This document shows, piece by piece, positions 12,659 through 60,456 of a DNA stretch of 64,000 nt. The first letter of the stretch is position 1; the number at the start of each line of letters is the position of its first letter. A program made the translations under genes and the position numbers. The notes below the pieces were generated by a model. It was not told where the DNA came from, did no database searches, and saw only the letters and a program-made list of their open reading frames with translations. This DNA is from Clostridia bacterium (GTDB lineage Bacteria; Bacillota; Clostridia; Oscillospirales; CAG-272): positions 6,748 through 70,747 of the forward strand of contig JAFRQK010000027.1 in the NCBI GenBank assembly GCA_017428635.1. The letters run 5' to 3'.

Positions 12659-14114
12659 ATTCGGTCAGGTATCTGGTCAGGATCGTCGCCACCTGCGCTC
12701 TCGTCGCGCCTCCGCGCGGATCGAGGACGACCTGTCCTTTTCCGTTCGTCGTACCCTTCAAAAGACCGCGTCCGACCGCCCACGCGAGCGGCTCGCGCGC
12801 GTATCCGCTGACGTCGCCCTCATCGGGGAACCCGGAAAGATCGCCGGCGGGCGCAACGTCGAGCCCTTTGTATTCCGAATACCTGTAAACTATCGTCGCG
12901 ATCTGTTCTCTCGTCAGCGGATCTCCCGGTGCGAAAACGTTCTCTTCGACGCCCTTTACTATACCGGCCTCCGCCGCCCACGCGACGGCTTTTTTATACC
13001 ATTCCCCGGTAAGATCGCCGAACGGAGGCTCCTCCGTAGGCTCCGGTTCGCCTTCGATACGCCACAGAACGGTGACGATCATAGCGCGGTTCATCCCGCC
13101 GTCGGGCGCGAAGACGCCGCCCGTCATCCCGTTCATCAGCCCGTTTCGGAAAGCGTACTCCACGTAGGGATAATACCATTTGTTTTCAGGCACGTCGCTG
13201 AAAAAATCGGCGAGCGTTATCTTAGGTACGGTGCGCGTTTCGGTGAATCCGCAGACCTGACAGGTGTAAACGGTCTGTCCTTCTTCTTCCCACGTTGCGG
13301 GGACGGTCTCGACGCCGTCGTCGAAAACGTGACCGGCGGGAAGAGTCCTTTTGCCGATCCTGCCGCAGTCGGCGCAGACCCTGACCGCGTATCCGTTCGT
13401 ATAGCATCCCGGCTCGACCGCGACGATCCAGTCGGTCCAAGAGTGGACGGCCTCTCCGTCGCCGGACGTTGAGACGGTGTCGATCGGATTGATCAGGTGA
13501 GAGATGTATCCTCCCCAGTATTTACGGAGCATCAGGTCGAGCGTATCCCAATCGTAACGGTCGAGACTGATGAGACCCGGTCCCGCGTTGTTTGCCTGAA
13601 GCACGTCGATCCCGTCCGTATCGTATCCGAGGATGATGAACGAGTGGCCGGACGATCCGTTGTACTCCCCGTCCGGCGAGGACGTCGTTCTGACGTACGC
13701 TCCGCAGTTGACGCCGCTGTCGCGGAGCAGCTCGTACGTGATCCTGTCGCCGCCCTTCAGCGGAACGGTGGAATGCGAATAGCCGCGATTGCCGTGATAT
13801 GGTACGTCGTCGAACAGATAATAGTAAACGGCGTTCGCGTAAATGTAACACTCGTATCCGATAAGCCCCGCCACCCTGTGAGGAGAACTCGGGTACGTGC
13901 CGATCGACGATCCGATCGGATAAGCTTTATCTTCGTTCTGGAAGAGCTGCGCCGAACCGGAGAACACGCTGTCAAGACGCGCGGCGAGGTATTCGTCGTC
14001 GGTGTAGTCCGAGCCGGAATAGGCAAAGACGGAAGAGGCGAGCGAAACGAAAACAAGAACGGCGCAAATGACGGCCGACGCCGATCGAACGGCGGCGCGC
14101 AGTCCGTTTTTCAC
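12657..14114 (-). CDS. Secreted protein: putative papain-fold Cys/His hydrolase domain + Cys-rich zinc-ribbon-like module + three C-terminal SLH repeats
   Basis: The track ORF (to 14744) is over-extended through the divergent promoter region. GTG at 14114 follows the SD-like AAAGGGGTGA and opens a signal peptide (VKNGLRAAVRSASAVICAVLVFVSLASSVFA). Candidate catalytic contexts are GYECYIYANAVYY (Cys) and GHSFIILGY (His). CxxC pairs (VCADCG, CQVCG). SLH repeats FSDVPENKWYYPYVEYAFRNGLMNG, FGDLTGEWYKKAVAWAAEAGIVKG, ...GYAREPLAWAVGRGLLKG. The enzyme assignment is tentative. Confidence 0.65.
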   Translation of the reverse strand: MKNGLRAAVRSASAVICAVLVFVSLASSVFAYSGSDYTDDEYLAARLDSVFSGSAQLFQNEDKAYPIGSSIGTYPSSPHRVAGLIGYECYIYANAVYYYLFDDVPYHGNRGYSHSTVPLKGGDRITYELLRDSGVNCGAYVRTTSSPDGEYNGSSGHSFIILGYDTDGIDVLQANNAGPGLISLDRYDWDTLDLMLRKYWGGYISHLINPIDTVSTSGDGEAVHSWTDWIVAVEPGCYTNGYAVRVCADCGRIGKRTLPAGHVFDDGVETVPATWEEEGQTVYTCQVCGFTETRTVPKITLADFFSDVPENKWYYPYVEYAFRNGLMNGMTGGVFAPDGGMNRAMIVTVLWRIEGEPEPTEEPPFGDLTGEWYKKAVAWAAEAGIVKGVEENVFAPGDPLTREQIATIVYRYSEYKGLDVAPAGDLSGFPDEGDVSGYAREPLAWAVGRGLLKGTTNGKGQVVLDPRGGATRAQVATILTRYLTE

Positions 14115-42422: not shown

Positions 42423-45062
42423 ATGAAAAGGTTTCTAAGCATTCTCTTGGCGACGGTGATGTTCTTATCACTGTTTGCCACAATCACGTTCGCCGAAGGC
42501 GAATCGCTGGAAGACATAATCGACGATAAGATCGATGAGCTTTGCTGCTTCTCACACGGCAAACTCGATCTCGTATTCGGTACGAGCGGCACGGTCTGCC
42601 CCGAGGATCTGACCGGCACGGAGCCCGGCACAAGAGGGCTCGAAGTTACGCTGAGCGAGATCTTCGGATACCCGGCAACGATGGAAAACGCCGATCTTCT
42701 CGCCGTCAGGGCCGCATACAGCGGGCTCGGCAACGGCCAGACCGCATGGCCCGAAGCGACTGTTACTTTCTCGGATCCCGAGAGCGACGAAGAGTATGAA
42801 GTCGATATCGATCTGGCTATGTATAAGAGCGTGACCGGCTCGTACTGCGGCGCGATCACGGACAAAGGATTCCTCGGCATTTGCCCTGAAGACTGGCCGG
42901 CAAACGCCAAAGCCGGATTGAAGGCGATAGCGGCCCGCCCGGCATCGCTGTTCGGCGACCCCGGACTGATCGACGACGACCAGGTTTTCGAGCTCCCCGG
43001 CGAAGAGATCACGGCGGCTGCGGTCGAGGCATGGTACCGCGACCTCACGAAGCTCGGCGACGGATGGACTTTCTACTGCTCCGATCTTAAAGCGGCCGCA
43101 AGCCAGGCGGTGAGCGTCGCTCTTATCAATCACGACATAGACGGCAGAACGGCGATCGTTTCCTGCAGCCCGACGCTTGAGGTAGAACCGCTGGAATACA
43201 AGATCGACGACAAGCTTGACGAACTCGTTTGTTTCGCGCACGGCAAACTCGACATCATATTCGGAGAATCCAAAAAGATAACTCCCGAGTCTCTCGGCGC
43301 CATTCTGACCGAACTCTTCGGATATCCGGCGACCGTCGAGCAGAGCGAGGTCGACAGAATCAAAGCTACGTACGGCGGGCTCGGCGGCGGTCAGACCGCG
43401 TGGGTCGACGGCGTTGAAGTGACCTTCTCGAAACCCGCTACCGGCGAGGAATACGATACGGAGATCGATCTGTCGGTCTTCAAGTCCCTGTACGGCCAGC
43501 ACGCTGGCGCTCTCGACGAAGAGCATCCCGCATACTACGGCACCTGCCCCGACGACTGGCCGGCGGCCGCAAAAGCGGCTATGACCAAAGTCAGCTCCTG
43601 GGACGACGAAACCAAGATACTGATGGAGGGCGTCAAGGTCTACACTCTCGAATCCGTTGAAGCGTGGTACCGCGAGGTGACGGGTCTCGGCGAAGGCTGG
43701 ACGTTCTGCTGCAACTGGTTCGACGCTACCAAGGCGTTCACCGGCAACGAGGTCGCCCTCGCGCTTATGAACAACGACGTGAACGGCGAAGGCAGGACGA
43801 TGATCGTCGCCTGCGGACCGGTGATCCACATTGCTGAACCTACCGCATCCCTGGAAGACGAAATCGATGAATTGTATGACAAACTTGTGTGCGTCGCACA
43901 CGGCAAACTCGACATCGTATGCGGTACGAGTTCAACGATCTACGATCCCGATAACGGTACGAGAGGTCTTGAGACCGCGCTGACCGAGATATTCGGATAT
44001 CCGGCAACGATGAGCGATGAAGATCTTCTCTACGTCAAGGAAGATTATCAGGGGCTCGGCGACGGTCAGACCGCATGGCCCGCGGCTGTAACCGTTACTT
44101 TCTCGAATCCCAATTCGAGCGAAACGTATGATCTTGAAGTGGATCTTTCCCTGTACAAATCGGTTGGCGGTTCGTACTGCGGCGCTATCGTTGACCACGG
44201 TTTCCTCGGCGCATGCCCCGACGACTGGTCGAGTGAAGCAAAGGCCGCTAAAGCGTCGGTCAATAATGCGACTGCCACCGCTCCCGATCTGTGGGACGAC
44301 GACGACGTGTTCGTGATCCCGGGCGAAGAGTACACGCCTGCCGCGATCGAATCGTGGCTGCGCGGCGTTACCAAGCTCGGAGACGCATGGACGTTCTATA
44401 TCAACGGTTTTAACGCCGACGAAGCGTACACCGGAAACACCGTAAGTCTCGGTCTTGTAAACAAAGACTTCGAAGGCAAGGGCAGAATGATCTCCATCAC
44501 CTGCGGACCGACGCTCAAGATCGAACAGAAGCCGACGGTCTCGTTCGTCGACGTTCCCGAGGGTGAGTACTACTACGACGCGGTCGCATGGGCGGTCGCC
44601 AACAACATCACCAACGGTACGGACGCTACGCACTTCTCACCGAAGGCGGGATGCACCCGCGCTCAGGTCGTGACCTTCCTCTGGAGGTCGGCGGGCGAAC
44701 CCGAACCGACGACGAAGAAGAACCCCTTCGAGGACGTTGATTCCAATCAGTATTATTACAAAGCCGTTCTTTGGGCGGTCGAAAAAGGGATCACCAACGG
44801 TACGGATAAGGCGCACTTCTCACCGAAGTCCACCTGCACGAGAGGACAGATCGTAACGTTCCTCTACAGATGGAAAGGCTCGCCTAAGGTCGAGGGCGCA
44901 AAGAACCCGTTCGAAGACGTTAAGAGCGGAGATTTCTTCTACGACGCGGTCCTCTGGGCGGTCGCCAACGGGATCACCACCGGTAAGAATGCGACGCACT
45001 TCGCTCCGAAGGACACCTGCACGAGAGCTCAGGTCGTGACCTTCATGTATCGCGGCAAATAA
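42423..45062 (+). CDS. Secreted protein with three tandem ~220-aa repeats of an unrecognised Cys-containing domain + three C-terminal SLH-like repeats
   Basis: ATG 42423 lies 5 nt after GGAGG. Signal peptide MKRFLSILLATVMFLSLFATITFA. Repeats start LEDIIDDKIDELCCFSHGKLD / LEYKIDDKLDELVCFAHGKLD / LEDEIDELYDKLVCVAHGKLD. C-terminal FVDVPEGEYYYDAVAWAVANNITNGT..FSPKAGCTRAQVVTFLWR, x3. Confidence 0.7.
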   Translation: MKRFLSILLATVMFLSLFATITFAEGESLEDIIDDKIDELCCFSHGKLDLVFGTSGTVCPEDLTGTEPGTRGLEVTLSEIFGYPATMENADLLAVRAAYSGLGNGQTAWPEATVTFSDPESDEEYEVDIDLAMYKSVTGSYCGAITDKGFLGICPEDWPANAKAGLKAIAARPASLFGDPGLIDDDQVFELPGEEITAAAVEAWYRDLTKLGDGWTFYCSDLKAAASQAVSVALINHDIDGRTAIVSCSPTLEVEPLEYKIDDKLDELVCFAHGKLDIIFGESKKITPESLGAILTELFGYPATVEQSEVDRIKATYGGLGGGQTAWVDGVEVTFSKPATGEEYDTEIDLSVFKSLYGQHAGALDEEHPAYYGTCPDDWPAAAKAAMTKVSSWDDETKILMEGVKVYTLESVEAWYREVTGLGEGWTFCCNWFDATKAFTGNEVALALMNNDVNGEGRTMIVACGPVIHIAEPTASLEDEIDELYDKLVCVAHGKLDIVCGTSSTIYDPDNGTRGLETALTEIFGYPATMSDEDLLYVKEDYQGLGDGQTAWPAAVTVTFSNPNSSETYDLEVDLSLYKSVGGSYCGAIVDHGFLGACPDDWSSEAKAAKASVNNATATAPDLWDDDDVFVIPGEEYTPAAIESWLRGVTKLGDAWTFYINGFNADEAYTGNTVSLGLVNKDFEGKGRMISITCGPTLKIEQKPTVSFVDVPEGEYYYDAVAWAVANNITNGTDATHFSPKAGCTRAQVVTFLWRSAGEPEPTTKKNPFEDVDSNQYYYKAVLWAVEKGITNGTDKAHFSPKSTCTRGQIVTFLYRWKGSPKVEGAKNPFEDVKSGDFFYDAVLWAVANGITTGKNATHFAPKDTCTRAQVVTFMYRGK
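42507..44526 (+). repeat. Three tandem coding repeats (~660-690 bp each: ~42507-43190, 43191-43850, 43851-44526)
   Basis: Protein-level self-similarity read from the translation (conserved FGYPATM/V, GLG.GQTAW, CP.DWP, EAWYR..T.LG.GWTF). Confidence 0.7.
44577..45049 (+). repeat. SLH-coding repeat, copy A (near-identical to 46531-47003)
   Basis: Manual alignment of A with B gives about 16 mismatches in 473 bp. The last ~190 bp differ at a single base. Confidence 0.85.
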
Positions 45063-45198: not shown

Positions 45199-47016
45199 AT
45201 GAAAAAGATTCTTAGTATTCTGTTGTCGGTCCTGATGCTCGTATCGGTTTCCGCTACCGTCGCGCTCGCCGGCAACGGTCCCGCCGAGGAGACGTGGACG
45301 TGGGAAAACGAAGATGGCAGCACGGAGACACTCTATCTTGCTTACATGAATATGGTTGAACTCGACGACAAAGGAAATCCGGTCACGGAAGGTGAGGAAG
45401 GGCCGGTCGTCTTCAAGCAGATCTTTTCGGACAACAAGGTGAAGAACGAAGTGCCCGGCGCCGTGTACGACAGGGCGACTAATACTTTGACGCTTACGAA
45501 TTTCAACAAGCCGAACTACGGCCTTCAGATGAATATGATGGGCGACGACTTCAAAATCAAGGTCGTCGGAGAATGCGCGCTTGCAGGCGTCGTTTCTTAC
45601 GGGTACGGATGGGGCTGCTCGGTCACTCTGACCGGCGACGGCACTCTTACCGTGAATGAAAAACTCTTCACTGCCGACGGAGCGTTCGTTTTCTACCCGG
45701 AGGACTGCGAAACTTCCGTTTTGACCGTCGGACCAGACGTTTCCGTTCATTTGTATTCTGAAAACGGCGTCGTTTCCGCGTTTGGCGTTGACGAGAACGA
45801 GAAGATCATAGACCTTTCGAGGGAACCCTCCGAGGCGCTCACTTTCGGTACGACCCAGGCGACTTATTCGGGTTTGGATACCGTCTCTTATATCGACACG
45901 TCGAAAGGCGCGGAAGATTTCAACGTTCTTAAACTGAACTATAAAAACGACGACGGAAAAGGCATGTGGGTCGCCAGACCGTCGTCCTGGTACGAGGGCG
46001 AGGGCGGACCGCTGATCAAAGAGGGTTATTCGGTATATCACCTCGTTGAGAACAAGGAACTTGGCGCGTGGATCGTCGATATCACCGCTGCGAGTGATGC
46101 AGGATATGGTTACGGATGTCTCGAGCTTTCGACCGAAGAATTCAACGCGATGGGGTTCACCGTCGCGGAAGGCGCAGAAGGCGGCCAGAAATGGATCACG
46201 CCCAAGGCGTATCAGTATTTTGCAACTAACGCCATGGTGTATACCGACGGTGAGAACGATTACGTCCAGGTGTGGGGATATGACGAAGAAAAGCATGAAT
46301 CATACTCCGAATTCTATACTTTCAAACCGTTGCCCGGCGTAGACGGTCTGATGATGACCGATAAACTCGCGGACGTAACCGAAGACGACGTCGATATCAA
46401 ATGGGTCCAGATCCCGATCGAAGGCAGTTATACCAGAAAGGTAACGAACAAGGAACTCCATATCGGCAAGGACGCCCAGCTCAAGCCTACCGTCACGTTC
46501 TCGGACGTTGCCGCGAATGCGTATTTCGCCGACGCGGTCGCATGGGCGGTCGCCAACAACATCACCAAAGGCACGGACGCTACGCACTTCTCTCCGAAAG
46601 CGGGATGCACACGCGCTCAGGTCGTGACCTTCCTCTGGAGGTCCGTGGGCGAACCCGAACCGACGACGAAGAAGAACCCCTTCGAGGACGTTGATTCCGA
46701 TCAGTATTATTACAAAGCGGTCCTCTGGGCGGTCGAAAAAGGGATCACCAACGGTACGGATAAGACGCACTTCTCACCGAAGGCCACCTGCACGAGAGGA
46801 CAGATCGTAACGTTCCTGTACAGATGGAAAGGCTCGCCGAAGGTCGAGGGCGCAAAGAACCCGTTCGAAGACGTTAAGAGCGGAGATTTCTTCTACGACG
46901 CGGTCCTCTGGGCGGTCGCCAACGGGATCACCACCGGTAAGAATGAGACGCACTTCGCTCCGAAGGACACCTGCACGAGAGCTCAGGTCGTGACCTTCAT
47001 GTACAGAGGAAGGTAA
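45199..47016 (+). CDS. Secreted protein, unrecognised ~430-aa N-terminal region + three C-terminal SLH-like repeats
   Basis: ATG 45199 lies 5 nt after GGAGG. Signal peptide MKKILSILLSVLMLVSVSATVALA. The C-terminal 160 aa are almost identical to those of the preceding gene. Confidence 0.7.
   Translation: MKKILSILLSVLMLVSVSATVALAGNGPAEETWTWENEDGSTETLYLAYMNMVELDDKGNPVTEGEEGPVVFKQIFSDNKVKNEVPGAVYDRATNTLTLTNFNKPNYGLQMNMMGDDFKIKVVGECALAGVVSYGYGWGCSVTLTGDGTLTVNEKLFTADGAFVFYPEDCETSVLTVGPDVSVHLYSENGVVSAFGVDENEKIIDLSREPSEALTFGTTQATYSGLDTVSYIDTSKGAEDFNVLKLNYKNDDGKGMWVARPSSWYEGEGGPLIKEGYSVYHLVENKELGAWIVDITAASDAGYGYGCLELSTEEFNAMGFTVAEGAEGGQKWITPKAYQYFATNAMVYTDGENDYVQVWGYDEEKHESYSEFYTFKPLPGVDGLMMTDKLADVTEDDVDIKWVQIPIEGSYTRKVTNKELHIGKDAQLKPTVTFSDVAANAYFADAVAWAVANNITKGTDATHFSPKAGCTRAQVVTFLWRSVGEPEPTTKKNPFEDVDSDQYYYKAVLWAVEKGITNGTDKTHFSPKATCTRGQIVTFLYRWKGSPKVEGAKNPFEDVKSGDFFYDAVLWAVANGITTGKNETHFAPKDTCTRAQVVTFMYRGR
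46531..47003 (+). repeat. SLH-coding repeat, copy B
   Basis: See copy A (44577-45049). Confidence 0.85.
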
Positions 47017-47072: not shown

Positions 47073-49472
47073 TCAGTTTCCGGCGAGGTACGCTTTGAGT
47101 ACGGGTACGTCCGACGCGTCGACCGTTCCGTTCGCGTCGGCGTCGGCGCCCGTCTTATTGATAATAAGCGCTTCGCCTTTGAGATAACGTCTCAGGAAGG
47201 CGAGATCTTTCATTACGATATATCCGTCTGCGTCGGCGTCGTACCGCGCGGCGGACGGGATCGCGGCTATGTAATCGGACTCTGCCGTCGGACCAGACTG
47301 AACTGCGTAATATATTCCGTCGCGCACCGTGACGCCGTACAGGTCGTGGCCGCCGTCCGGCAGGCGGAACAGACAATTGACGACGCCGGTCGCGGGATCG
47401 AACGAGACGATCTCACGCGGGGTATTGTAAACGAGAGCCCCGTTGCAGTTGCAAAGGCCCGAGAAATATCCGAACCAGAAATAGCCGTGGGTCTCCGTCT
47501 CCCACATTTCGGAAAGCGTTCTGACAGTCGACGATCTTACGAGATCGGGAGTCTTCATGATCGCAAATCCCGAACCTGCGCTCCCGATAAAGTACCATGA
47601 TCCGTCAAGCGGAACGAACGGCGTTGTGACGCCGTGCCAGATCGCTCCCTCGTACGACTTGTCGGTACAGGCGATGTCGTCACCGTATCCCTTCCACCCG
47701 TAATGCGGGTCTCTCCCGTCTTCGGACGACGATACGTATTCGTCCGAAACGAGGAAATACGTGTGGATCGCGGAGCCTAGCTGATCGGGGATCGGATCGT
47801 CCCATGCAAGGTCGACGTGATACCACTTTCCGCCTATCTGAACGCGGTTCCACGTGTGGTTCATGGCGGTGCTTATGACGGCGTCGACGTTGATACCGAA
47901 GCGTTTGAGGACCTCGATGTAGAGCAGCGTGTACGCCTGACATACTCCGCGCTTTTCCTTGAAGAAGTTATAAACGTCGTGGATCGCGTACGAGGTGTCG
48001 TATTCGAACCCGGTCAGGATATAGTCGTGAACGAACAGCGCCTTTTCAAGGTCGCTCCACGAGCGGTCGACGAGCGAACATAACGAATCTATCTCCGCTT
48101 CGTATTCGGCTTTCATTCTCTTTATCTGTTCCGCGTCAGTGATCGTATATCTGGGGTAAAATTCATAGATCTTTCCGGTCGTTTTGCTCTGAGAATACGT
48201 GTACATTATATCGACGTAGAAAAGATCGGGAACGGTATTTATTATCTCCTGAAACGCCCACTGTAATTTGTCGTCGTCCAGATCGTACTCCGAGACGTCG
48301 ATGCTCCCGGAAAATTCTCTCATCCCGGAGACGAGGGCATCGATCGCGCCGGACGCGGAGGAACCGGAAGCGCGGGATCCGTCGAGAAATACCTGCGCCG
48401 CGCCGTCGCGGAGAACGGAGCCGCCGCTTTGCGCCGCCGCCTCCTCACCGTCCGCATCGTTCGATCTTTTGAGGAAAGTGACGACCTGTCCTCTCGTGCA
48501 GGTGGCTTTCGGCGAGAAATGCGTCGCGTCCGTTCCGTTTGTGATATTGTTTTCGACCGCCCAGAGGACCGCGTCGCAGAAAAAGTCCCCGCTCTTAACG
48601 TCTTCGAACGGGTTCTTTGCGCCCCCGACCTTCGGCGAGCCTTTCCATCTGAACAGGAAAGTGACGATCTGTCCTCTCGTGCAGGTGGCTTTCGGCGAGA
48701 AATGCGTCGCGTCGGTACCTTTGGTGATCTCCTTTTCGACCGCCCAGAGGACCGCCTTGTAATAATACTGATCGGAAGCGACGTCCTCGAAGGGGTTCTT
48801 CTTCGTCGTCGGTTCGGGTTCGCCCGCCGTTCTCCAGAGGAAGGTCACGACCTGCGCGCGTGTGCATCCCGCTTTCGGCGAGAAATGCGTCGCGTCCGTT
48901 CCGTTTGTGATATTGTTTTCGACCGCCCAGCTCACGGCTTCGGCGTAATACGCGTCCGGATCGACGTCTTCAAAACGGGAGAGCGCGCCTCCTCTGACCT
49001 TGACCGCGCCGTTCGTGACTTTGAACGAAACGCTCTTGAGCGATACGTTGACGAAATCGCCCGGAAGATACGAGACGCTGACGGGCTGAGACCCCGAAGG
49101 GGCGTCGCCGCTGATCCTGAATTTCAGGGTGACGAGCGTTCCGTTCTTTGCGTTATCCTTCGAGGCGAGCGTGTCGTCCCACGTGACGTAGTACGGGTTT
49201 GCCGATCTGTTGTTTCCGAAGTTCGCTCCGGAGAGAACTCCGCCGTCCGTGACGCCCGTAAGCTCCAGATATTCGCCGTAACTGACGGCGAGACGTCCGG
49301 CGCATACGCCCGGGTTTCCCGTCATGGCGACGGTGACGGACACCTCTTTACCCGGCGTACCGCTGACCGTTGAGACGGTGATCGCGGGACTTGCGGCAAA
49401 CGACGTCACCGGCATGATCCCCGTCAGGAACACGGCGGCGAGGACAGCAGCGAGGATCCTGATCTTTTTCAT
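47073..49472 (-). CDS. Secreted cohesin - SLH-like x3 - transglutaminase-like (papain-fold) - dockerin protein
   Basis: True start is ATG 49472 (GGAGAAGAGG upstream; signal peptide MKKIRILAAVLAAVFLTGIMPVTSFA); the track ORF is over-extended to 49748. Cohesin: ITVSTVSGTPGKEVSVTVAMTGNPGVCAGRLAVSY...YYVTWDD...LVTLKFRI. Transglutaminase-core-like: RGVCQAYTLLY...NHTWNRVQIGGKWYHVDLAWDD. Dockerin: DADADGYIVMKDLAFLRRYL...DADANGTVDASDVPVLKAYL. Confidence 0.75.
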   Translation of the reverse strand: MKKIRILAAVLAAVFLTGIMPVTSFAASPAITVSTVSGTPGKEVSVTVAMTGNPGVCAGRLAVSYGEYLELTGVTDGGVLSGANFGNNRSANPYYVTWDDTLASKDNAKNGTLVTLKFRISGDAPSGSQPVSVSYLPGDFVNVSLKSVSFKVTNGAVKVRGGALSRFEDVDPDAYYAEAVSWAVENNITNGTDATHFSPKAGCTRAQVVTFLWRTAGEPEPTTKKNPFEDVASDQYYYKAVLWAVEKEITKGTDATHFSPKATCTRGQIVTFLFRWKGSPKVGGAKNPFEDVKSGDFFCDAVLWAVENNITNGTDATHFSPKATCTRGQVVTFLKRSNDADGEEAAAQSGGSVLRDGAAQVFLDGSRASGSSASGAIDALVSGMREFSGSIDVSEYDLDDDKLQWAFQEIINTVPDLFYVDIMYTYSQSKTTGKIYEFYPRYTITDAEQIKRMKAEYEAEIDSLCSLVDRSWSDLEKALFVHDYILTGFEYDTSYAIHDVYNFFKEKRGVCQAYTLLYIEVLKRFGINVDAVISTAMNHTWNRVQIGGKWYHVDLAWDDPIPDQLGSAIHTYFLVSDEYVSSSEDGRDPHYGWKGYGDDIACTDKSYEGAIWHGVTTPFVPLDGSWYFIGSAGSGFAIMKTPDLVRSSTVRTLSEMWETETHGYFWFGYFSGLCNCNGALVYNTPREIVSFDPATGVVNCLFRLPDGGHDLYGVTVRDGIYYAVQSGPTAESDYIAAIPSAARYDADADGYIVMKDLAFLRRYLKGEALIINKTGADADANGTVDASDVPVLKAYLAGN
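48476..48950 (-). repeat. SLH-coding repeat, copy C (inverted relative to A and B, more diverged)
   Basis: Reverse complement aligns with copies A/B and includes identical runs such as GGGCGAACCCGAACCGACGACGAAGAAGAACCCCTTC. Boundaries are approximate. Confidence 0.7.
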
Positions 49473-54672: not shown

Positions 54673-55218
54673 ATGAACATTACGCTTTACGGAGCCGCGA
54701 GCGAAAAAGTAGACGCGATCTACAAGGAAGAGGTCGAAAAACTCGGGGCGGAGATGGCGCGGCGCGGTCACACGATGGTGTTCGGAGGCGGCGCGTCCGG
54801 ACTGATGGGCGCGGCGGCGCGCGGGATGAAGGCGGGCGGCGGCAGGATAATCGGGATAACTCCCCGCTTTATCCACGAATTCGAGCCGATATTCGACGGC
54901 TGCACGGAACTGATCGATACGAAGACGCTGAGCGAGAGGAAGGACAAGATGGAGTCCCTCGCCGACGCGTTCATAATCGTGCCGGGCGGTATCGGAACGT
55001 TCGACGAGTTTTTCCAGATCCTTACCCTGAGATCTCTCGGAAGACACACGAAGCCGATCGTTCTTTTCAACGTCAAGAATTTCTGGGACAATATGCTCTC
55101 CGTCGTCGGATCGGATATGTTCAAGGGATTCATCGGCACTTACGTCGCGGACTGTTTCACGGTCTGTGAAACGGCGGAGTCGGCTTTCGCGTATCTCGAA
55201 GAAAAAGCGGGCAAATAA
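54673..55218 (+). CDS. LOG-family (TIGR00730) nucleotide 5'-monophosphate nucleosidase / cytokinin riboside-5'-monophosphate phosphoribohydrolase-like protein
   Basis: GGGASGLMGAAARG and PGGIGTFDEFFQ motifs. 181 aa. Confidence 0.85.
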   Translation: MNITLYGAASEKVDAIYKEEVEKLGAEMARRGHTMVFGGGASGLMGAAARGMKAGGGRIIGITPRFIHEFEPIFDGCTELIDTKTLSERKDKMESLADAFIIVPGGIGTFDEFFQILTLRSLGRHTKPIVLFNVKNFWDNMLSVVGSDMFKGFIGTYVADCFTVCETAESAFAYLEEKAGK

Positions 55219-55233
55219 TACGTATATAGTCGC

Positions 55234-55263
55234 AGTCCCCGTGCAGTTGCACGGGGACTTTTC
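55234..55263 (+). terminator. Rho-independent terminator; last element of the high-GC region
   Basis: AGTCCCCGTGCA-GT-TGCACGGGGACT, then TTTTC. Confidence 0.75.
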
Positions 55264-55389
55264 AATTGTGTATGCCACAAGTTAAAAACGTCTGTTTGTT
55301 TTAATCAGGAGTTCATCTTCCGCCGAATGAAGTTTTTGTTCATTTTCATCCAGTAAAATAAGGTATAGATTTATTTGGATGTGAATAAA

Positions 55390-56235
55390 ATGAAAGAACG
55401 TTTTTTGGGTGAAAAACAACTCGAAGAATTCAGGGAACACCTTATCCGCGGAGAAAAAAGCAAGGCGACGGTTGAAAAATACGTAAGAGACGTAGAGGCG
55501 TTTGCATCATTTGTAAAAGGAAACGAGATTTTGAAAGAGACTGTGATAGCGTATAAAAACGCACTACAAAAAGACGGATATGCACCCAGAAGCATCAATT
55601 CAATGCTTGCGAGCGTTAACAGTTTTCTTTCATTTCTCGGGTGGCATGACCTAAGAGTAAAATCCATTCGAATCCAACATCAGATTTTTTGTTCGGAAGA
55701 AAAAGAACTGTCGAAAGCGGAATTTTCGCGCCTTGTTGAAGCCGCAAAAGCAAAAAGTAATGAGCGGTTGAGTATGATCCTTCAAACGATCTGCGGGACC
55801 GGGATCCGCGTGAGCGAACTTCAGTTTATTACCGTTGAAGCGGTAAAACGCGGCGAGGCAATGGTCTCATGTAAGGGAAAAACCCGCTCGGTGTTTATCG
55901 TACGTGATTTACAGAAAAAATTGCTTCGATATTTATCGGAGCACGAAATAACCGCCGGAAGCGTATTTATCACACGCAGCGGCAAGCCCATAAGTCGAAC
56001 GAATATTTGGCGTGATATGAAATCCTTGTGCGTTGAAGCAAACGTTGATCCGGGAAAGGTGTTTCCGCACAATCTGCGTCATTTGTTTGCCCGTGTCTTT
56101 TACGGAATCGAGAAAGATATAGCAAAATTAGCAGATGTTCTCGGTCACAGCAGTATTGATACCACGCGTATTTATATAGTGAGCACCGGCGCAGAACACC
56201 GCAAGCGAATGGAGAGAATGAAGCTGATAATATAA
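55390..56235 (+). CDS. Tyrosine site-specific recombinase (phage-integrase/XerD-like family); predicted invertase of the adjacent switch
   Basis: ATG 55390 lies 5 nt after GGATGTGA (the track TTG is at 55375). N-terminal SAM-like core-binding domain (LEEFREHLIRGEKSKATVEKYVRDVEAF). Catalytic contexts GTGIRVSELQFI (Arg), HNLRHLFA (His-x-x-Arg), GHSSIDTTRIY (His...Tyr). Confidence 0.85.
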   Translation: MKERFLGEKQLEEFREHLIRGEKSKATVEKYVRDVEAFASFVKGNEILKETVIAYKNALQKDGYAPRSINSMLASVNSFLSFLGWHDLRVKSIRIQHQIFCSEEKELSKAEFSRLVEAAKAKSNERLSMILQTICGTGIRVSELQFITVEAVKRGEAMVSCKGKTRSVFIVRDLQKKLLRYLSEHEITAGSVFITRSGKPISRTNIWRDMKSLCVEANVDPGKVFPHNLRHLFARVFYGIEKDIAKLADVLGHSSIDTTRIYIVSTGAEHRKRMERMKLII

Positions 56236-56257
56236 AAAAGCCGCCATTGAGCGGCGG

Positions 56258-56281
56258 ATGATTACATAATCGGTATTATGT
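56258..56281 (+). repeat. Left inverted repeat (IR-L) of the putative invertible element
   Basis: ATGATTACATAATCGGTATTATGT. Its exact reverse complement occurs at 56497-56520. Confidence 0.95.
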
Positions 56282-56327
56282 CATAATAAAGCGACCGACA
56301 AGTTCCATACACATATATATATGCTTT

Positions 56328-56356
56328 ATAATAACACACGACGGGGATTAAGTCAA
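56328..56356 (-). promoter_or_regulatory. Strong promoter inside the invertible core, currently pointing left (TTGACT-17 nt-TATTAT, with a TGn extension)
   Basis: Minus strand: -35 at 56356-56351 and -10 at 56333-56328, preceded by TGT. Confidence 0.6.
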
Positions 56357-56416
56357 TAAAGCAAAGCAAAATAATGAACGTTTTTTTATCAAATCATTAA
56401 GAACTGCAACGAGATC

Positions 56417-56470
56417 CCCCTTATACGGTTTGTCAAAAACCGAAAATTAAGGGGCTCTTTTTTTGCGCTC
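56417..56470 (+). terminator. Hairpin + T-run inside the invertible core, active for rightward transcription in the present orientation
   Basis: CCCCTTA (56417-56423) pairs with TAAGGGG (56448-56454). Inner stem CGGTTT/AAACCG. Followed by CTCTTTTTTTGCGCTCTTTTTT. Confidence 0.55.
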
Positions 56471-56496
56471 TTTTTTGTGCATATTCAGACGATGTA

Positions 56497-56520
56497 ACAT
56501 AATACCGATTATGTAATCAT
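56497..56520 (-). repeat. Right inverted repeat (IR-R)
   Basis: ACATAATACCGATTATGTAATCAT, the reverse complement of IR-L. Confidence 0.95.
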
Positions 56521-56539
56521 TATTTTTTGGAGGCGAAAA

Positions 56540-57034
56540 ATGGTAAAAAAAATGCTGGTTATTCTGTTGGCTTCAACCCTTTTGCTTAGCTTATTAACAA
56601 TTTCAGCTTGCAAAAAAGAAGAAGGGAATGAGAATAAAACGGATGGGAAGGCGGCATACGGTCTAGCCGTCGAAAAAGGATATGAAGGGACAAAAGAGCA
56701 ATGGATCGCCGCTCTGGTCGGCGAAACGGTCCCCGGCGAGAACGAGACCGCGTATGACGTGGCATGTAACCGCGGATATACCGGTTCGTTCGACGAATGG
56801 ATGAAAGCCCTGACGGGATATACGGTCGAGGACGAAACAACCCCCGCATACGGAGTTATGGTAACGAAAGGGTATTCCGGATCTTTGACGGAATGGTTGA
56901 ACTCTCTTGTCGACGCGCCGGAGGAGCTCGGGCATTCGACCGGAGAGAACAAATCGGAATATGAACTCGCTTGTGAATACGGCTTTGAAGGGACTTATAT
57001 CGAGTGGATGGTGTCCCTTGTGAGTAAATATTAA
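56540..57034 (+). CDS. Small lipoprotein made of four copies of a ~24-aa (S/A)AY-x-(L/V)A-x3-G(Y/F)-x-G(T/S)-x3-W(L/I/M)-x-(S/A)L motif
   Basis: GGAGG lies 6 nt upstream. Lipobox LLTISAC. Repeats AAYGLAVEKGYEGTKEQWIAALVG, TAYDVACNRGYTGSFDEWMKALTG, PAYGVMVTKGYSGSLTEWLNSLV, SEYELACEYGFEGTYIEWMVSLV. Confidence 0.7.
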   Translation: MVKKMLVILLASTLLLSLLTISACKKEEGNENKTDGKAAYGLAVEKGYEGTKEQWIAALVGETVPGENETAYDVACNRGYTGSFDEWMKALTGYTVEDETTPAYGVMVTKGYSGSLTEWLNSLVDAPEELGHSTGENKSEYELACEYGFEGTYIEWMVSLVSKY

Positions 57035-57063
57035 AAAAAATTTAAAGATGGAGGACAGAAATT

Positions 57064-60000
57064 TTGAAGAGACTCAAAAAGCTTCTCTCTGTCATTCTGG
57101 CGGTCGCTATGCTGGCGACGTTCGGGATGACAGCCCTTGCAGCGGACGTTGAGTACGTTGACGTTGCAAAGGGAGATCGGTATTACGATCAGATAATACT
57201 GGTGTCAAAAGCAGGTATTATGGTGGGAAAGGACGAGACCCATTTCTCGCCGGACGATTACGTGACAAGGGCGGAGATGGCTGCAATTCTGTGGCGTCTC
57301 GAGGGAGAACCCGGGGGCTATACGTGTGATTTTGCAGACGTCGACGCGGGCGCGTGGTACTATCCCGCAGTTGCGTGGCTCAAGGTTTTCGGACTGGCGA
57401 ACGGTATCGGCGGAAATCGTTTTGCTCCGGAACAGACTCTTACCCGCGAACAGATGGCGGCGATGCTTTATCGCTACGCTTCTCATAAATTCATTATTTG
57501 GGTGACGCCGATTGAACTCGGGAATTACGCGGACGGGAAATCTGTTTCTTCATATGCAGAGGACGCTGTAAAGTGGATGATAATGTACAACGTTCTTCAG
57601 GCAGACGGGGACAAGATCCGTCCTGCAGATCCCGCTACACGTGCTGAAGTCGCTTCCGGAGTGTCGATCTTCTTTATGGAGGACGGCAGACTCGTTAATA
57701 CAGGCGGCAAGTCGGCTTACGATCTCGCCGTTGAAAACGGGTATACCGGAACGGTTCAGGAATGGCTCGCTTCTCTTGCCGGAGCGAACGGCAAGGATGG
57801 TGTCGACGGCAAGGACGGAAAAGACGGTCAAAACGGAAAATCGGCGTATGATCTTGCCGTGGAGAACGGTTACGTAGGAACCGTTGAAGACTGGCTTGCA
57901 TCTCTTGTCGGCGCACCGGGTAAAGACGGCGTTGACGGCAAAGACGGCGTTGACGGAAAAGACGGCGTCGATGGCAAAGACGGCGTTGACGGCAAAGACG
58001 GAGTCGATGGCAAAGATGGTGTCGACGGTAAAGACGGGGTCGATGGCAAGGACGGCGTTGACGGAAAAGACGGCGTTGACGGCAAAGACGGCGTCGACGG
58101 CAAAGACGGAGTCGACGGTAAAGACGGCGTTGACGGTAAAGACGGCGTCGACGGCAAAGACGGAGTCGACGGTAAAGACGGCGTTGACGGTAAAGACGGC
58201 GTCGACGGCAAAGACGGCGTTGACGGTAAAGACGGCGTCGACGGTAAAGACGGCGTCGATGGTAAAGACGGAGTCGACGGTAAGGACGGCGTGGACGGAA
58301 AGTCCGCTTACGATCTCGCTGTTGAAAATGGCTTCACCGGTTCCGTTCAGGATTGGCTGGCGTCGCTTTCGGGTGACGGCAAAAACGGTGAGAACGGCAA
58401 GTCCGCATATGATCTTGCCGTGGAGAACGGTTACGTAGGAACCGTTGAAGACTGGCTCACATCGCTTGTCGGAGCTCCCGGTCGCGATGGCGTCGACGGC
58501 AAAGACGGCGTCGACGGTAAAGACGGCGTCGATGGCAAAGACGGCGTTGACGGCAAAGACGGAGTCGATGGCAAAGATGGTGTCGACGGTAAAGACGGGG
58601 TCGATGGCAAGGACGGCGTTGACGGCAAAGACGGCGTTGACGGCAAAGACGGCGTCGATGGAAAAGACGGCGTCGATGGAAAAGACGGAAAAGACGGTGC
58701 TGACGGGAAATCCGCATACGAACTCGCTGTAGAAAACGGATTCGAGGGGTCCCTTCAGGATTGGCTGGCGTCGCTTTCGGGCGACGGCAAAAACGGTGAG
58801 GACGGCAAGTCCGCATATGACCTTGCCGTGGAGAACGGTTACGAAGGAACCGTACAGGATTGGCTCGCATCGCTTTCGGGCGACGGCAAGAACGGCGAGG
58901 ACGGCAAGTCCGCATACGAACTCGCAGTCGATCACGGATATAACGGATCGGAAATCGAATGGCTCCGCTCTCTTGCCGGTGCAAACGGCAAGTCTGCTTA
59001 TGAGCTCGCCGTCGATCACGGCTATAACGGGTCGGAGATCGAATGGCTTGCGTCACTGGTCGGTGAGACCGGTGCAGACGGCAAATCAGCGTACGAGGTC
59101 GCCGTTGATCACGGCTATAACGGATCGGAGACCGATTGGCTCGCTTCTCTTATAGGTCCTTCCGGCGCAAAGGGAGCTGACGGAGCAAACGGCAAGTCCG
59201 CTTACGAACTCGCCGTTGAAAACGGATACGAAGGCGATCTCGTTTCGTGGCTCGATTCGCTCCGCGGTAAGGACGGCAAAGACGGTGTCGACGGTAAGGA
59301 CGGACAGGACGGCAAAGACGGCGTCGACGGTCAGGATGGCAAGTCCGCATATGAGGTCGCGGTTGAGAACGGATATCAGGGAAGCGTAACGGAATGGCTT
59401 GTCTCCCTTATCGGCGCTTCCGGACGTGACGGCGTTGACGGTAGAGACGGCGTTGACGGAAAAGACGGGCAGGACGGCGCTCCCGGTCGTGACGGTGTCA
59501 ACGGTCAGGACGGTAAATCTGCATTTGAAGTCGCGGTTGAGAACGGATACCAAGGAAACGTTACGGATTGGCTGCTCTCTCTTGTCGGCGCTCCCGGTCG
59601 TGACGGAGTCGATGGTAAAGACGGAGTCGACGGCAAAGACGGCATCGACGGCAAAGACGGCATCGACGGCAAAGACGGTGTCGACGGTAAAGACGGTATT
59701 GACGGAAAAGACGGACAGGACGGTCAGAATGGAGCGGGCGTATCGAACGCGTACGTAAACGATGAACTTCATCTTATTCTTGTCCTCTCCGACGGCACCG
59801 AGATTGACGCAGGGTATGTTGGCGTGTCTGGACAAAATCAGCCTGTAACGAATCAGTATACGGTAACGTTCAAGGATTGGGACGGAACCGTTTTGAAAAC
59901 TCAGACAGTTAATGCAGGCGAGGATGCTGTTCCTCCTGTCATTCCGACACGTGATGGTTATACCTTTACTGGCTGGAGCGAATCATATACTAATGTGACG

Positions 60001-60444
60001 GCAAGTATTACTGTTTGTGCAAATTATTCCGAAAGTATATCTGGCGCAACGTTTATTGTTGATAGCTTTTCGGCAAATGCTGGTGAAACGGTAGATGTAA
60101 CAATCAGGGTAAAGAATAATCCCGGAGTGGCAGGCGCAATTCTTACATTTACATTTGATGATCATCTTTCCTTGATTTCTGCATCACCCGGTGAAGCATT
60201 TTCTGAACTCCAGCTTACCAAACCTGGGAAATTCGTATCTCCGTGTAATTTCCCATGGGATTCCGAAAGTGGAATGGCAACAGATGACGGCGTCATCTTG
60301 ACATTGCAATTTAAAGTATCTGAGAATGTTTCATCCGGTGATAAACTAAATATTGTTTGCTCATATAAAATTGGCGATATCTATGACGAAAATCTTGATA
60401 ACGTTAGTTTCAGTATTATTAATGGTTGTATTACTGTAAAATAA
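57064..60444 (+). CDS. SLH-anchored collagen-like surface protein with a C-terminal cohesin domain
   Basis: TTG start 8 nt after GGAGGA. Signal peptide ...FGMTALA. Three SLH repeats. 12 copies of KSAY(D/E)LAVENGY.G....WL.SL.G interleaved with G-X-Y tracts (GKDGVD)n. Listeria-Bacteroides type repeat YTVTFKDWDGTVLKTQTVNAGEDAVPPVIPTRDGYTFTGW. Cohesin FIVDSFSANAGETVDVTIRVKNNPGVAGAILTFTFDD...NFPWDSE...ILTLQFKV. Confidence 0.8.
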   Translation: MKRLKKLLSVILAVAMLATFGMTALAADVEYVDVAKGDRYYDQIILVSKAGIMVGKDETHFSPDDYVTRAEMAAILWRLEGEPGGYTCDFADVDAGAWYYPAVAWLKVFGLANGIGGNRFAPEQTLTREQMAAMLYRYASHKFIIWVTPIELGNYADGKSVSSYAEDAVKWMIMYNVLQADGDKIRPADPATRAEVASGVSIFFMEDGRLVNTGGKSAYDLAVENGYTGTVQEWLASLAGANGKDGVDGKDGKDGQNGKSAYDLAVENGYVGTVEDWLASLVGAPGKDGVDGKDGVDGKDGVDGKDGVDGKDGVDGKDGVDGKDGVDGKDGVDGKDGVDGKDGVDGKDGVDGKDGVDGKDGVDGKDGVDGKDGVDGKDGVDGKDGVDGKDGVDGKDGVDGKDGVDGKDGVDGKSAYDLAVENGFTGSVQDWLASLSGDGKNGENGKSAYDLAVENGYVGTVEDWLTSLVGAPGRDGVDGKDGVDGKDGVDGKDGVDGKDGVDGKDGVDGKDGVDGKDGVDGKDGVDGKDGVDGKDGVDGKDGKDGADGKSAYELAVENGFEGSLQDWLASLSGDGKNGEDGKSAYDLAVENGYEGTVQDWLASLSGDGKNGEDGKSAYELAVDHGYNGSEIEWLRSLAGANGKSAYELAVDHGYNGSEIEWLASLVGETGADGKSAYEVAVDHGYNGSETDWLASLIGPSGAKGADGANGKSAYELAVENGYEGDLVSWLDSLRGKDGKDGVDGKDGQDGKDGVDGQDGKSAYEVAVENGYQGSVTEWLVSLIGASGRDGVDGRDGVDGKDGQDGAPGRDGVNGQDGKSAFEVAVENGYQGNVTDWLLSLVGAPGRDGVDGKDGVDGKDGIDGKDGIDGKDGVDGKDGIDGKDGQDGQNGAGVSNAYVNDELHLILVLSDGTEIDAGYVGVSGQNQPVTNQYTVTFKDWDGTVLKTQTVNAGEDAVPPVIPTRDGYTFTGWSESYTNVTASITVCANYSESISGATFIVDSFSANAGETVDVTIRVKNNPGVAGAILTFTFDDHLSLISASPGEAFSELQLTKPGKFVSPCNFPWDSESGMATDDGVILTLQFKVSENVSSGDKLNIVCSYKIGDIYDENLDNVSFSIINGCITVK
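57910..58305 (+). repeat. Collagen-like tract 1: 44 uninterrupted G-X-Y codon triplets, 21 copies of an 18-bp GGN-AAR-GAY-GGN-GTN-GAY unit
   Basis: Counted directly from the sequence. Units differ only at synonymous third positions. Confidence 0.95.
58471..58713 (+). repeat. Collagen-like tract 2: 27 G-X-Y triplets; shares an identical ~90-bp block with tract 1
   Basis: The block GGCAAAGACGGCGTTGACGGCAAAGACGGAGTCGATGGCAAAGATGGTGTCGACGGTAAAGACGGGGTCGATGGCAAGGACGGCGTTGAC occurs in both tracts. Confidence 0.9.
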
Positions 60445-60456
60445 GGAGAATATACC

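Follow-up and report, generated by a model that had tools for sequence, protein, structure and literature searches.

A cohesin-tipped collagen-like stalk protein and its giant dockerin-bearing neighbour: a probable non-cellulosomal surface display system in Clostridia

The gene at positions 57064-60444 (plus strand) of a 64,000-nucleotide stretch of a Clostridia genome (assembly GCA_017428635.1, contig JAFRQK010000027.1; hereafter the window) encodes a protein of 1126 residues that begins with S-layer homology (SLH) repeats, continues as a long stalk of collagen-like Gly-X-Y tracts and repeated motif units, and ends in a predicted cohesin. With moderate confidence we read the product of this gene as one of two components of a cell-surface system that is non-cellulosomal, namely the component that supplies anchor and stalk; it would be encoded in a phase-variable operon and have a stalk that is probably trimeric. 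The gene probably serves to hold out a giant dockerin-bearing adhesin that is encoded next door. All of its parts belong to known kinds, which the protein combines into a new variant.

The open reading frame (ORF) uses a TTG start codon and has the sequence GGAGG 9 nucleotides (nt) upstream of it. Its domains follow one another on the plus strand as a Sec signal peptide recognised by inspection (residues 1-26, 57064-57141, cleaved between ALA and AD), three SLH repeats that form the wall anchor (57148-57699; Pfam SLH, E 1.8e-27, three stretches), the stalk (residues 214-895, 57703-59748), a conserved junction segment described below, a Listeria-Bacteroides repeat (Flg_new; residues 932-977, 59857-59994; E 4e-9) and the cohesin (residues 997-1125, 60052-60438; E 8e-11). 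The Pfam Collagen model adds nine stretches with an E value of 3.5e-48. Pfam and a direct parse of the translation thus give the same order, signal peptide, SLH, motif and Gly-X-Y stalk, Flg_new and cohesin, that a preliminary description of this DNA had read from the letters alone, and the four families that it expected (SLH, Collagen, Flg_new and Cohesin) all match. This architecture is not a chance product.

The preliminary description had staked its reading on the C-terminal domain being a cohesin, and on this point the hidden Markov model (HMM) and the predicted fold agree. The Pfam model PF00963 matches with 42.7 bits, above its cut-off of 24.1, and 3-139 of its 139 positions are covered. 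An AlphaFold2 (AF2) model of the C-terminal 243 residues, for which 27 homologues served as input, reached a mean predicted local distance difference test score (pLDDT) of 91.4, and 95-98 in the cohesin part. When this model was compared with the PDB using Foldseek, the top 50 of 50 matches were cohesins, of types I, II and III together with one non-cellulosomal example; the best was 5nrm_A (E 6e-10, target-normalised template modelling score 0.80, root-mean-square deviation 2.4 Å), and 5n5p and 2xdh also matched. Over the cohesin matches as a whole the target-normalised score is about 0.8 and the deviation 2-3 Å, and the model has the nine-stranded jelly-roll beta-sandwich of the fold. The distance in sequence from solved cohesins is large, the best phmmer match in the PDB being the CipA cohesin 1AOH (E 8e-4); other PDB matches obtained by phmmer or Foldseek include 4fl4, 3kcp and 2b59. 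By HMM and predicted structure, the C-terminal domain is therefore assigned as a cohesin.

A partner for this cohesin may be encoded immediately downstream. The next gene (60454-64000, plus strand) starts 9 nt after the stop codon of the stalk gene, is cut by the end of the window and encodes more than 1182 residues of a giant protein, arranged as signal peptide, cohesin, dockerin, Cys-rich repeats, Flg_new, a Ser-rich region and BspA-type leucine-rich repeats (LRRs; 63283-63513, plus strand). That this gene bears a dockerin was claimed in the preliminary description, and the domain was located at 60949-61143 (plus strand). It is a symmetric dockerin of two near-identical calcium-loop/helix segments, in which the sequence DVNDDGxxNGKDVTLIRRY, conserved across loci, occurs twice. 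What had been missed is that the giant has a cohesin of its own (60559-60948, plus strand), directly N-terminal of the dockerin and 47% identical to the cohesin of the stalk protein; the earlier view of the partner stands as to the dockerin and is incomplete as to the cohesin. The linker between the two domains has only about five residues, and self-docking or head-to-tail chaining of the giant is conceivable. After the dockerin, at 61150-61500 of the window (residues ~235-350 of the giant), there are Cys-rich repeats of the form CxxC...CxxC (e.g. CNHNMEYFNAKEATCTEEGNIEYWRCSICGKYY) without a Pfam assignment; very similar repeats fill giant secreted proteins that lie behind DNA switches of the family described below (loci L051 and L143).

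The pairing of the two genes was followed in 28 further loci, eight of them contexts found by exact-protein look-up (L001-L008) and 20 taken from named metagenome-assembled genomes (L009-L028), the latter retrieved among genome representatives with a seven-sequence alignment (best identity 57%). Their hosts belong to Oscillospiraceae, Acutalibacteraceae, Ruminococcaceae, 'Eubacteriales' and Lachnospiraceae, and the sources include human, chicken, goat and roe deer. A gene ending in a cohesin of this kind is followed in 24 of the 28, after ~3-25 nt, by a gene of 1200-1730 residues with the same plan: signal peptide, cohesin, dockerin, a middle region and LRRs. The functional link between the stalk gene and its neighbour, as the preliminary description saw it, is thus borne out by a cohesin/giant-dockerin pair that is conserved in 24 loci from various uncultured Clostridia. 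In the full-length giant proteins (1528-1682 residues) an SLH domain, an LPXTG motif and a C-terminal transmembrane segment are all absent, and the N-terminal dockerin and cohesin are the only means of attachment recognisable in the sequence. We infer that the cohesin of the stalk protein captures the dockerin of the giant, which is presumed to be an adhesin.

The upstream member of the pair varies. In some loci it is an SLH protein with motif units and short collagen tracts, in others a lipoprotein with motif units, collagen tracts or both, and in L013 and L019 it has collagen without motif units. Because the anchor gene varies and the pair is constant, the conserved core is the cohesin/dockerin gene pair. 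In most loci the cohesins of the anchors and those of the giants form two separate orthologous clades, which suggests that the two hold distinct and conserved roles. Some lipoprotein-type cassettes carry, between the anchor and the giant, an additional stand-alone cohesin gene of about 167-190 residues (11292-11795 in L005 and L006, 9416-9973 in L021).

The stalk itself has a strict Gly period over its two longest tracts. The direct parse yielded exactly 12 copies of the unit GKSAY[DE][LV]AV[ED][NH]G[YF]xGxxxxWLxSLxG, the number given in the preliminary description, whose reading of the units as helical is backed by the AF2 model of paralogous units presented below. Uninterrupted Gly-X-Y tracts of 44 (residues 283-414, 57910-58305, plus strand), 27 (residues 470-550, 58471-58713, plus strand), 17, 12, 9, 7 and 5 triplets were parsed, in line with the two long and at least five shorter tracts expected, together with four linkers of three triplets each. 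Tracts of at least seven triplets sum to 116 triplets, which would span ~100 nm if triple-helical. Position X is mainly Lys or Val, and 105 of 136 triplets (77%) have Asp at position Y. The 44-triplet tract consists of GAP, 21 GKDGVD units and GKS. At the nucleotide level the 21 units exist in 14 versions with a mean identity of 88%; all variable columns are third codon positions, and the pairwise differences comprise 469 synonymous and no non-synonymous changes, when 22% synonymous would be expected from random single changes. As the divergence is entirely synonymous, the exact hexapeptide is under strong purifying selection. This selection, judged from the sequence, argues for a structural role of the Gly-X-Y tracts and not for that of a generic linker.

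A second line of evidence on the nature of the stalk comes from phage proteins. The stalk matches many families of the PHROG database, several of which are labelled tail fibre or tail protein (phrog_25979 with E 8e-181, 14726, 19976 and 13286), and its motif-rich segment matches 383 deposited phage genomes with hosts across many phyla. Among these are the Pseudomonas jumbo phages PhiPA3 and 201phi2-1, phages of Staphylococcus, Escherichia and Streptomyces, and Butyrivibrio viruses; the matched proteins are annotated as tail fibre, minor tail or virion structural proteins. By these matches, the stalk is the same module as that used in phage fibres. Phage tail fibres are trimeric, and so are the tracts of Scl2 and BclA. 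The strict Gly periodicity, the synonymous-only divergence of the GKDGVD units and the homology to Scl2 and phage tail fibres together suggest, largely by analogy, that the Gly-X-Y tracts of the stalk would trimerise.

Directly after the last collagen tract lies the junction segment (NAYVNDELHLILVLSDGTEIDAGYVGV; residues ~896-925, 59749-59838, plus strand), with the pattern NAY[VI]N..HLIL.[LM][ST][DN]G..IDAGYVGV, which is found at this place in 20 of 20 homologues inspected. AF2 predicts three beta strands in it (residues 10-15, 20-25 and 30-35 of the C-terminal model), and it is a candidate for the module that sets the register of the collagen tracts or nucleates them. The motif units are likewise candidate registration elements.

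The fold of the motif unit was approached through a small gene upstream of the stalk gene (56540-57034, plus strand), which encodes a lipoprotein of 164 residues with the lipobox ISAC and four copies of the stalk motif without collagen. Its AF2 model (20 homologues) consists of four hairpins, with pLDDT 85.9 overall and >92 over residues 40-160, and a predicted template modelling score (pTM) of 0.74. On this model the stalk unit is a predicted helix-turn-helix hairpin. The model has no fold match in the PDB (best E 2.6), and the protein has 21 homologues of about 160 residues and belongs to no Pfam family. Ankyrin repeats had been suggested by phmmer matches to designed consensus ankyrins (E 3e-9, with a 33-residue period) and by faint Ank_2 matches in some relatives; the assignment was rejected since no Pfam ankyrin family matches at E ≤ 0.1 and the four-unit model gives no PDB match, so that the likeness is a helix-turn-helix resemblance and not a family assignment. 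A fold search of the motif model in the BFVD database returned only weak, sequence-driven matches, to virion and tail-fibre proteins of phages; their template modelling scores are poor, and they are uninformative on the global fold. A small motif protein precedes the anchor only in SLH-type cassettes (the window and L001-L004), and it might help to assemble the stalk or tether it to the membrane.

Expression of these genes is probably subject to DNA inversion. A tyrosine recombinase gene of XerC/D type (55375-56235, plus strand; Pfam Phage_integrase and Phage_int_SAM_1) ends 22 nt before the left arm of a perfect 24-nt inverted repeat (ATGATTACATAATCGGTATTATGT, 56258-56281, with the core ACATAAT-N4-ATTATGT; right arm 56497-56520), and a terminator-like hairpin lies between the recombinase and the repeat. 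The arms bracket a segment of 215 nt (56282-56496). The best sigma-70-like promoter match of the region lies inside it (TTGACT-17-TATTAT, TG-extended, 10 of 12 consensus positions; 56356 to 56328, minus strand) and points away from the operon; the segment also carries a hairpin followed by a U-run at about 56406-56466, terminator-like in the plus direction only (-23.2 kcal/mol, z -3.6). The ribosome-binding site of the small gene, at 56530, is downstream of the right arm. A promoter on the minus strand and a terminator-like hairpin on the plus strand are the layout of an OFF state; the element is apparently an invertible promoter in the OFF orientation, and its orientation would set the transcription of the operon. 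The predicted junctions are ATCGGTATTATGT joined to TACATCGTCTGAATATGCAC in the ON state and ATCGGTATTATGT joined to CATAATAAAGCGACC in the OFF state. The recombinase was at one time regarded as the integrase of a mobile element, an idea that was replaced by that of an invertase, as now presumed, once the conserved repeat pair had been found.

Switches of the same kind occur elsewhere. In six loci (L009, L016, L019, L020, L023 and L024) the cassette is directly preceded by a homologue of the recombinase, and between the two lies a perfect repeat pair of 18-27 nt that has the same core and brackets 148-239 nt. At least 120 copies of the family-level repeat pattern were found in metagenomes; in 108 of 120 copies a homologous recombinase abuts the repeat pair, its 3' end always toward the pair. 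In 61 pairs of metagenomic loci the inner segments are reverse-complemented with respect to each other, mostly at 97-100% identity and in a minority at 73-92%, and the clearest flipped pairs keep both 300-nt flanks collinear at 98-100% (e.g. L045 and L080). Flipped inner segments between collinear flanks show directly, at the level of populations, that switches of this family invert. Other genes found behind such switches encode a NusG-like antiterminator, Wzz, a flippase of MatE/MurJ type, a ResIII helicase and a giant surface protein with Big_2/GLUG domains; these are typical phase-variable functions, in keeping with the known gut invertible promoters (PMC11892184, PMC11602134). Among the seven cassette loci, including the window, inversion was not seen; their inner segments are too diverged, and the comparable pairs (L009 and L020, L023 and L024) are co-oriented.

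From these data the following course can be proposed. The adjacent tyrosine recombinase would flip the 215-nt promoter segment, and only then would the operon of lipoprotein, stalk and giant be transcribed; in the present assembly the switch would be OFF. Once made, the stalk protein would be exported by the Sec pathway and fixed to the wall by its three N-terminal SLH repeats, so placed that the stalk of ~680 residues projects outward, for about 100 nm if triple-helical, and carries the junction segment, one Flg_new repeat and the cohesin at its distal tip. There the cohesin would capture the symmetric dockerin near the N-terminus of the giant LRR protein, and because the giant has no anchor of its own and would be caught at the tip of the stalk, this presumed adhesin would stand well away from the wall. 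Three cohesins would be presented by each stalk if its Gly-X-Y tracts form trimers like those of Scl2, BclA and phage fibres. The giant's own cohesin, which belongs to a separate, conserved clade, could recruit a further dockerin. The most elaborate version of this scheme is a phase-variable plug-and-socket system, in which a trimeric stalk of ~100 nm derived from phage fibres bears three cohesins, the giant adhesins chain into a branched or polymeric adhesive canopy, and the helix-turn-helix units together with the junction segment form a new type of registration and nucleation node for collagen; as a whole we consider this version unlikely.

Several observations weigh against the reading of the gene as a subunit with a trimeric stalk in a phase-variable operon, and they concern the helix, the pairing and the switch. 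The stalk has five prolines in 682 residues, a net charge of -87 and Asp at Y in most of its triplets; its composition is atypical because characterised bacterial collagens often have Pro at X and Thr at Y (PMC8968730). Known trimerisation domains, such as the V domain of Scl proteins or the C1q-like head of BclA, are absent from the Pfam and NCBIfam results on the protein. Orthologous anchors without any collagen are found in L010, L016-18, L022-24 and L027, from which the triple helix is inessential to the system; by comparison of the loci, the collagen stalk is an optional spacer of variable length and the cohesin/dockerin pair the core. As to the pairing, the giant's own cohesin could be what its dockerin binds. 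As to the switch, the promoter is a consensus match of a kind no more frequent than in shuffled sequences, and the switch of the window has been seen in one orientation only, in the window and in a second contig (L029, described below); the exact repeat arm has 0 matches in the JGI metagenomes, and the ON state of this switch is unobserved.

The same features of the stalk allow another interpretation, possible and not to be taken lightly, in which it is a monomeric, extended and acidic spacer, polyproline-II-like or a disordered polyampholyte, that carries a single cohesin and retains the display function. The near-absence of proline, the 77% of Asp at Y and the strong negative charge fit such a spacer, as do the lack of a recognised trimerisation domain and the four-hairpin motif array, which is predicted as a compact monomeric unit (pTM 0.74); in addition, the collagen-free anchors make multimerisation through collagen dispensable. 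However, a flexible linker would not need an exact GKDGVD sequence and a Gly phase that are kept over 21 diverged units, and phage tail fibres, which are generally known as trimers, contain these very modules of motif units and collagen. The universally conserved junction segment, moreover, caps the last tract. Finally, the Lys/Asp-rich and Pro-poor Scl2.28 does form a triple helix, with a melting temperature of about 36 °C (PMC8968730).

In sequence the Gly-X-Y part is related to the streptococcal collagens, since the NCBIfam Scl2/SclB model matches that part only, with E 1e-66 and a score of 225.5; this score is under the curated cut-off of 325, so the protein is no Scl orthologue. With Scl1 and Scl2 of Streptococcus pyogenes and BclA of Bacillus anthracis it shares the succession of anchor, Gly-X-Y stalk and distal globular domain (PMC8968730), its GKD-type Lys/Asp tracts resembling those of Scl2, and its polarity, with an N-terminal anchor and a distal C-terminal head, being that of BclA. 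In contrast to these proteins, the head is a predicted cohesin, a docking socket and not a ligand-binding V or C1q-like domain, and the stalk is interrupted 12 times by the helix-turn-helix repeat, is nearly free of proline and lacks a known trimerisation domain.

It is distinctly improbable, in our view, that the two proteins are wired differently, the dockerin of the giant binding its own cohesin or that of another giant and the cohesin of the anchor binding a dockerin elsewhere, for example that of the protein encoded at 47073-49472. The position of the giant cohesin immediately N-terminal of its dockerin would suit this arrangement, the separate clades of anchor and giant cohesins permit distinct specificities, and both a second dockerin in the window and the lone additional cohesin genes of L005/6 and L021 offer other partners. 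Yet the giants have no other anchoring device, the anchor and giant genes are nearly contiguous in 24 loci, and the alternative partner, a transglutaminase protein, lies outside the cassette.

The protein at 47073-49472 (minus strand) has a signal peptide, a cohesin (48996-49382), three SLH repeats, a transglutaminase-like core and, at its C-terminus, a dockerin (47079-47240, minus strand), which is the second local dockerin announced in the preliminary description; it is a wall-anchored socket and plug in one and a possible alternative partner of the stalk protein. Its ORF as listed runs to 49748, and the likely start is MKKIRILAAV.

A role as a cellulosome-type anchoring scaffoldin, comparable to SdbA, OlpB and Orf2p and tethering carbohydrate-active enzymes or a primary scaffoldin, appears very unlikely. 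In favour of it, SLH plus cohesin is the combination that defines anchoring scaffoldins, and the closest fold matches are cellulosomal cohesins. However, the 64-kb window contains two dockerins only, one on the LRR giant and one on the transglutaminase-like SLH protein, none on a glycoside hydrolase; the partner that is conserved in the 24 loci is the LRR/Flg_new giant; and the sequence is far from cellulosomal cohesins (best PDB phmmer E 8e-4). SdbA, Orf2p and OlpB of Clostridium (Acetivibrio) thermocellum are cellulosomal anchoring scaffoldins with a C-terminal SLH region and Pro/Thr linkers. The stalk protein resembles them in uniting wall-bound SLH repeats and a cohesin in one polypeptide, and in being the predicted holder of dockerin partners, a binding that in scaffoldins depends on calcium. 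It differs from them in its N-terminal SLH repeats, in the collagen-like and helix-turn-helix stalk that replaces the Pro/Thr linkers, in its giant LRR partner, in its remote cohesin and in the invertible promoter predicted upstream. The protein would work like an anchoring scaffoldin and looks like a BclA or Scl stalk, and it falls outside the full definition of either, with a presumed partner that is non-cellulosomal, a reversed domain order, no trimerisation domain of a known type and an Scl2 score under the cut-off.

That the gene encodes a structural fibre of phage origin or a prophage protein, acting as a receptor mimic or a superinfection barrier, is most improbable, since the homology of the stalk to phage tail-fibre and virion proteins, the low G+C content of the cassette and the adjoining tyrosine recombinase stand against a Sec signal peptide and an SLH anchor, the lack of phage structural, packaging or lysis genes nearby, and a recombinase that makes better sense as the invertase of the switch beside it. 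The phage fibres with PHROGs 25979, 14726, 19976 and 13286 (e.g. in PhiPA3, 201phi2-1 and Butyrivibrio virus Bo-Finn) do contain the same module, GKSAYE[LI]AVxxG[YF]xGTxxxWLxSLxG plus Gly-X-Y. Unlike the stalk protein, which is a secreted wall protein, they have neither signal peptide nor SLH nor cohesin and are encoded in virion modules; the genes around its own encode a recombinase, a lipoprotein and a dockerin/LRR protein, and no virion structural module adjoins it.

Two other kinds of system bear on the favoured reading, that of a phase-variable anchor and stalk for the giant. The toxin and glycosidase complexes of Clostridium perfringens use cohesin and dockerin outside the cellulosome. 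Like these complexes and the Archaeoglobus fulgidus cohesin 2xdh, the locus would employ the pair as an assembly device outside cellulose degradation; it differs from them in being a dedicated syntenic pair of anchor and cargo, with a collagen-like spacer and predicted phase-variable expression. As to control, cwpV of C. difficile with its recombinase RecV is an example of a surface-protein gene under an invertible promoter (inverton). Other gut bacterial surface structures are controlled in the same manner (PMC11892184, PMC11602134), and the locus shares with invertons the short repeats that bracket a putative promoter, the adjoining tyrosine recombinase, the surface-protein genes downstream and, in its switch family, the presence of both orientations. 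In contrast to known invertons, the core ACATAAT-N4-ATTATGT and the recombinase clade matched no named system.

The base composition sets the cassette apart from its surroundings. From 55375 to 64000 the G+C content is 0.41-0.52, below the 0.58 of the preceding 55 kb; it is 0.43 in the recombinase gene, 0.49 in the small gene, 0.52 in the SLH part, 0.41 in the Flg_new and cohesin part (0.32 at third codon positions) and 0.43 in the giant gene, and the stalk is G+C-rich solely through its codon content. The closest relatives are also mixed: for the cohesin the nearest match is in a cassette of lipoprotein type (L012, 57% identity), and for the SLH and stalk parts it is among SLH-type proteins. 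Low G+C content and mixed relatives together suggest that the cassette was acquired horizontally, with domain shuffling. No tRNA gene was found in the window. At least eight further SLH-domain proteins were located in the 64 kb (at 488-1015, 12675-13196, 18204-18716, 23982-24566, 28960-29544, 44538-45053, 46498-47007 and 48465-48995), several of them with 600-1600 residues, which makes this region a hotspot of wall-anchored surface proteins.

A search with the full-length protein returned 3753 proteins at E ≤ 1e-10, and among the best 120 of these, which were parsed, at least 84 have the collagen-cohesin design. Of the 120, 78 are about 1000-1130 residues long and have a lipoprotein or transmembrane N-terminus, 10 or more Gly-X-Y triplets, Flg_new and, at the C-terminus, a cohesin; six (P0122, P0123, P0125, P0130, P0131 and P0132) share the order found here with N-terminal SLH repeats, their longest tracts having 5-24 triplets as against 44; and ~20 lack a signal peptide and resemble phage fibres. 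A query with the Flg_new and cohesin part was swamped by giants with many Flg_new repeats and was of no use for sizing the collagen-cohesin family. In the source databases the relatives have no other names than 'hypothetical' and 'InlB B-repeat-containing protein'. The literature searched on collagen-like, cohesin and dockerin proteins, S-layer homology and non-cellulosomal adhesins yielded no account of a collagen-cohesin protein, and a Gly-Lys-Asp triple helix had no match there either. The preliminary description, which knew of no described cohesin scaffold with a collagen triple helix as spacer, agrees with that literature, although the design is common in sequence databases. The family is widespread in uncultured gut Clostridia and apparently undescribed.

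Full-length members are under-represented in public data. The contig L029 (ENA ERZ27256812, a short-read contig of 3138 bp), 99.3% identical to positions 54874-58001 of the window, stops inside the 44-triplet tract, and the sole exact database copy of the C-terminus of the stalk protein is a fragment of 206 residues (P0001). This break and this fragment indicate that public assemblies systematically cut such genes short, in that long collagen-like repeats break short-read assemblies.

What is known of cohesin-dockerin assembly comes almost wholly from cellulosomes, and bacterial collagens have been described for the most part in spores and a small number of pathogens. The locus described here unites cohesin-dockerin assembly, as predicted from its domains, with a collagen stalk like that of phage fibres and pairs it with an anchorless LRR giant, a design shared by many uncultured Clostridia of gut and rumen. 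Protein engineering could draw from it a natural GKDGVD collagen without proline and a new, orthogonal pair of predicted cohesin and dockerin. If the pairing and the trimer are true, gut Firmicutes would possess a modular adhesin display of tunable length that is toggled by DNA inversion, which would be of relevance for colonisation, for immune evasion and for the exchange of fibre modules between phages and their hosts.

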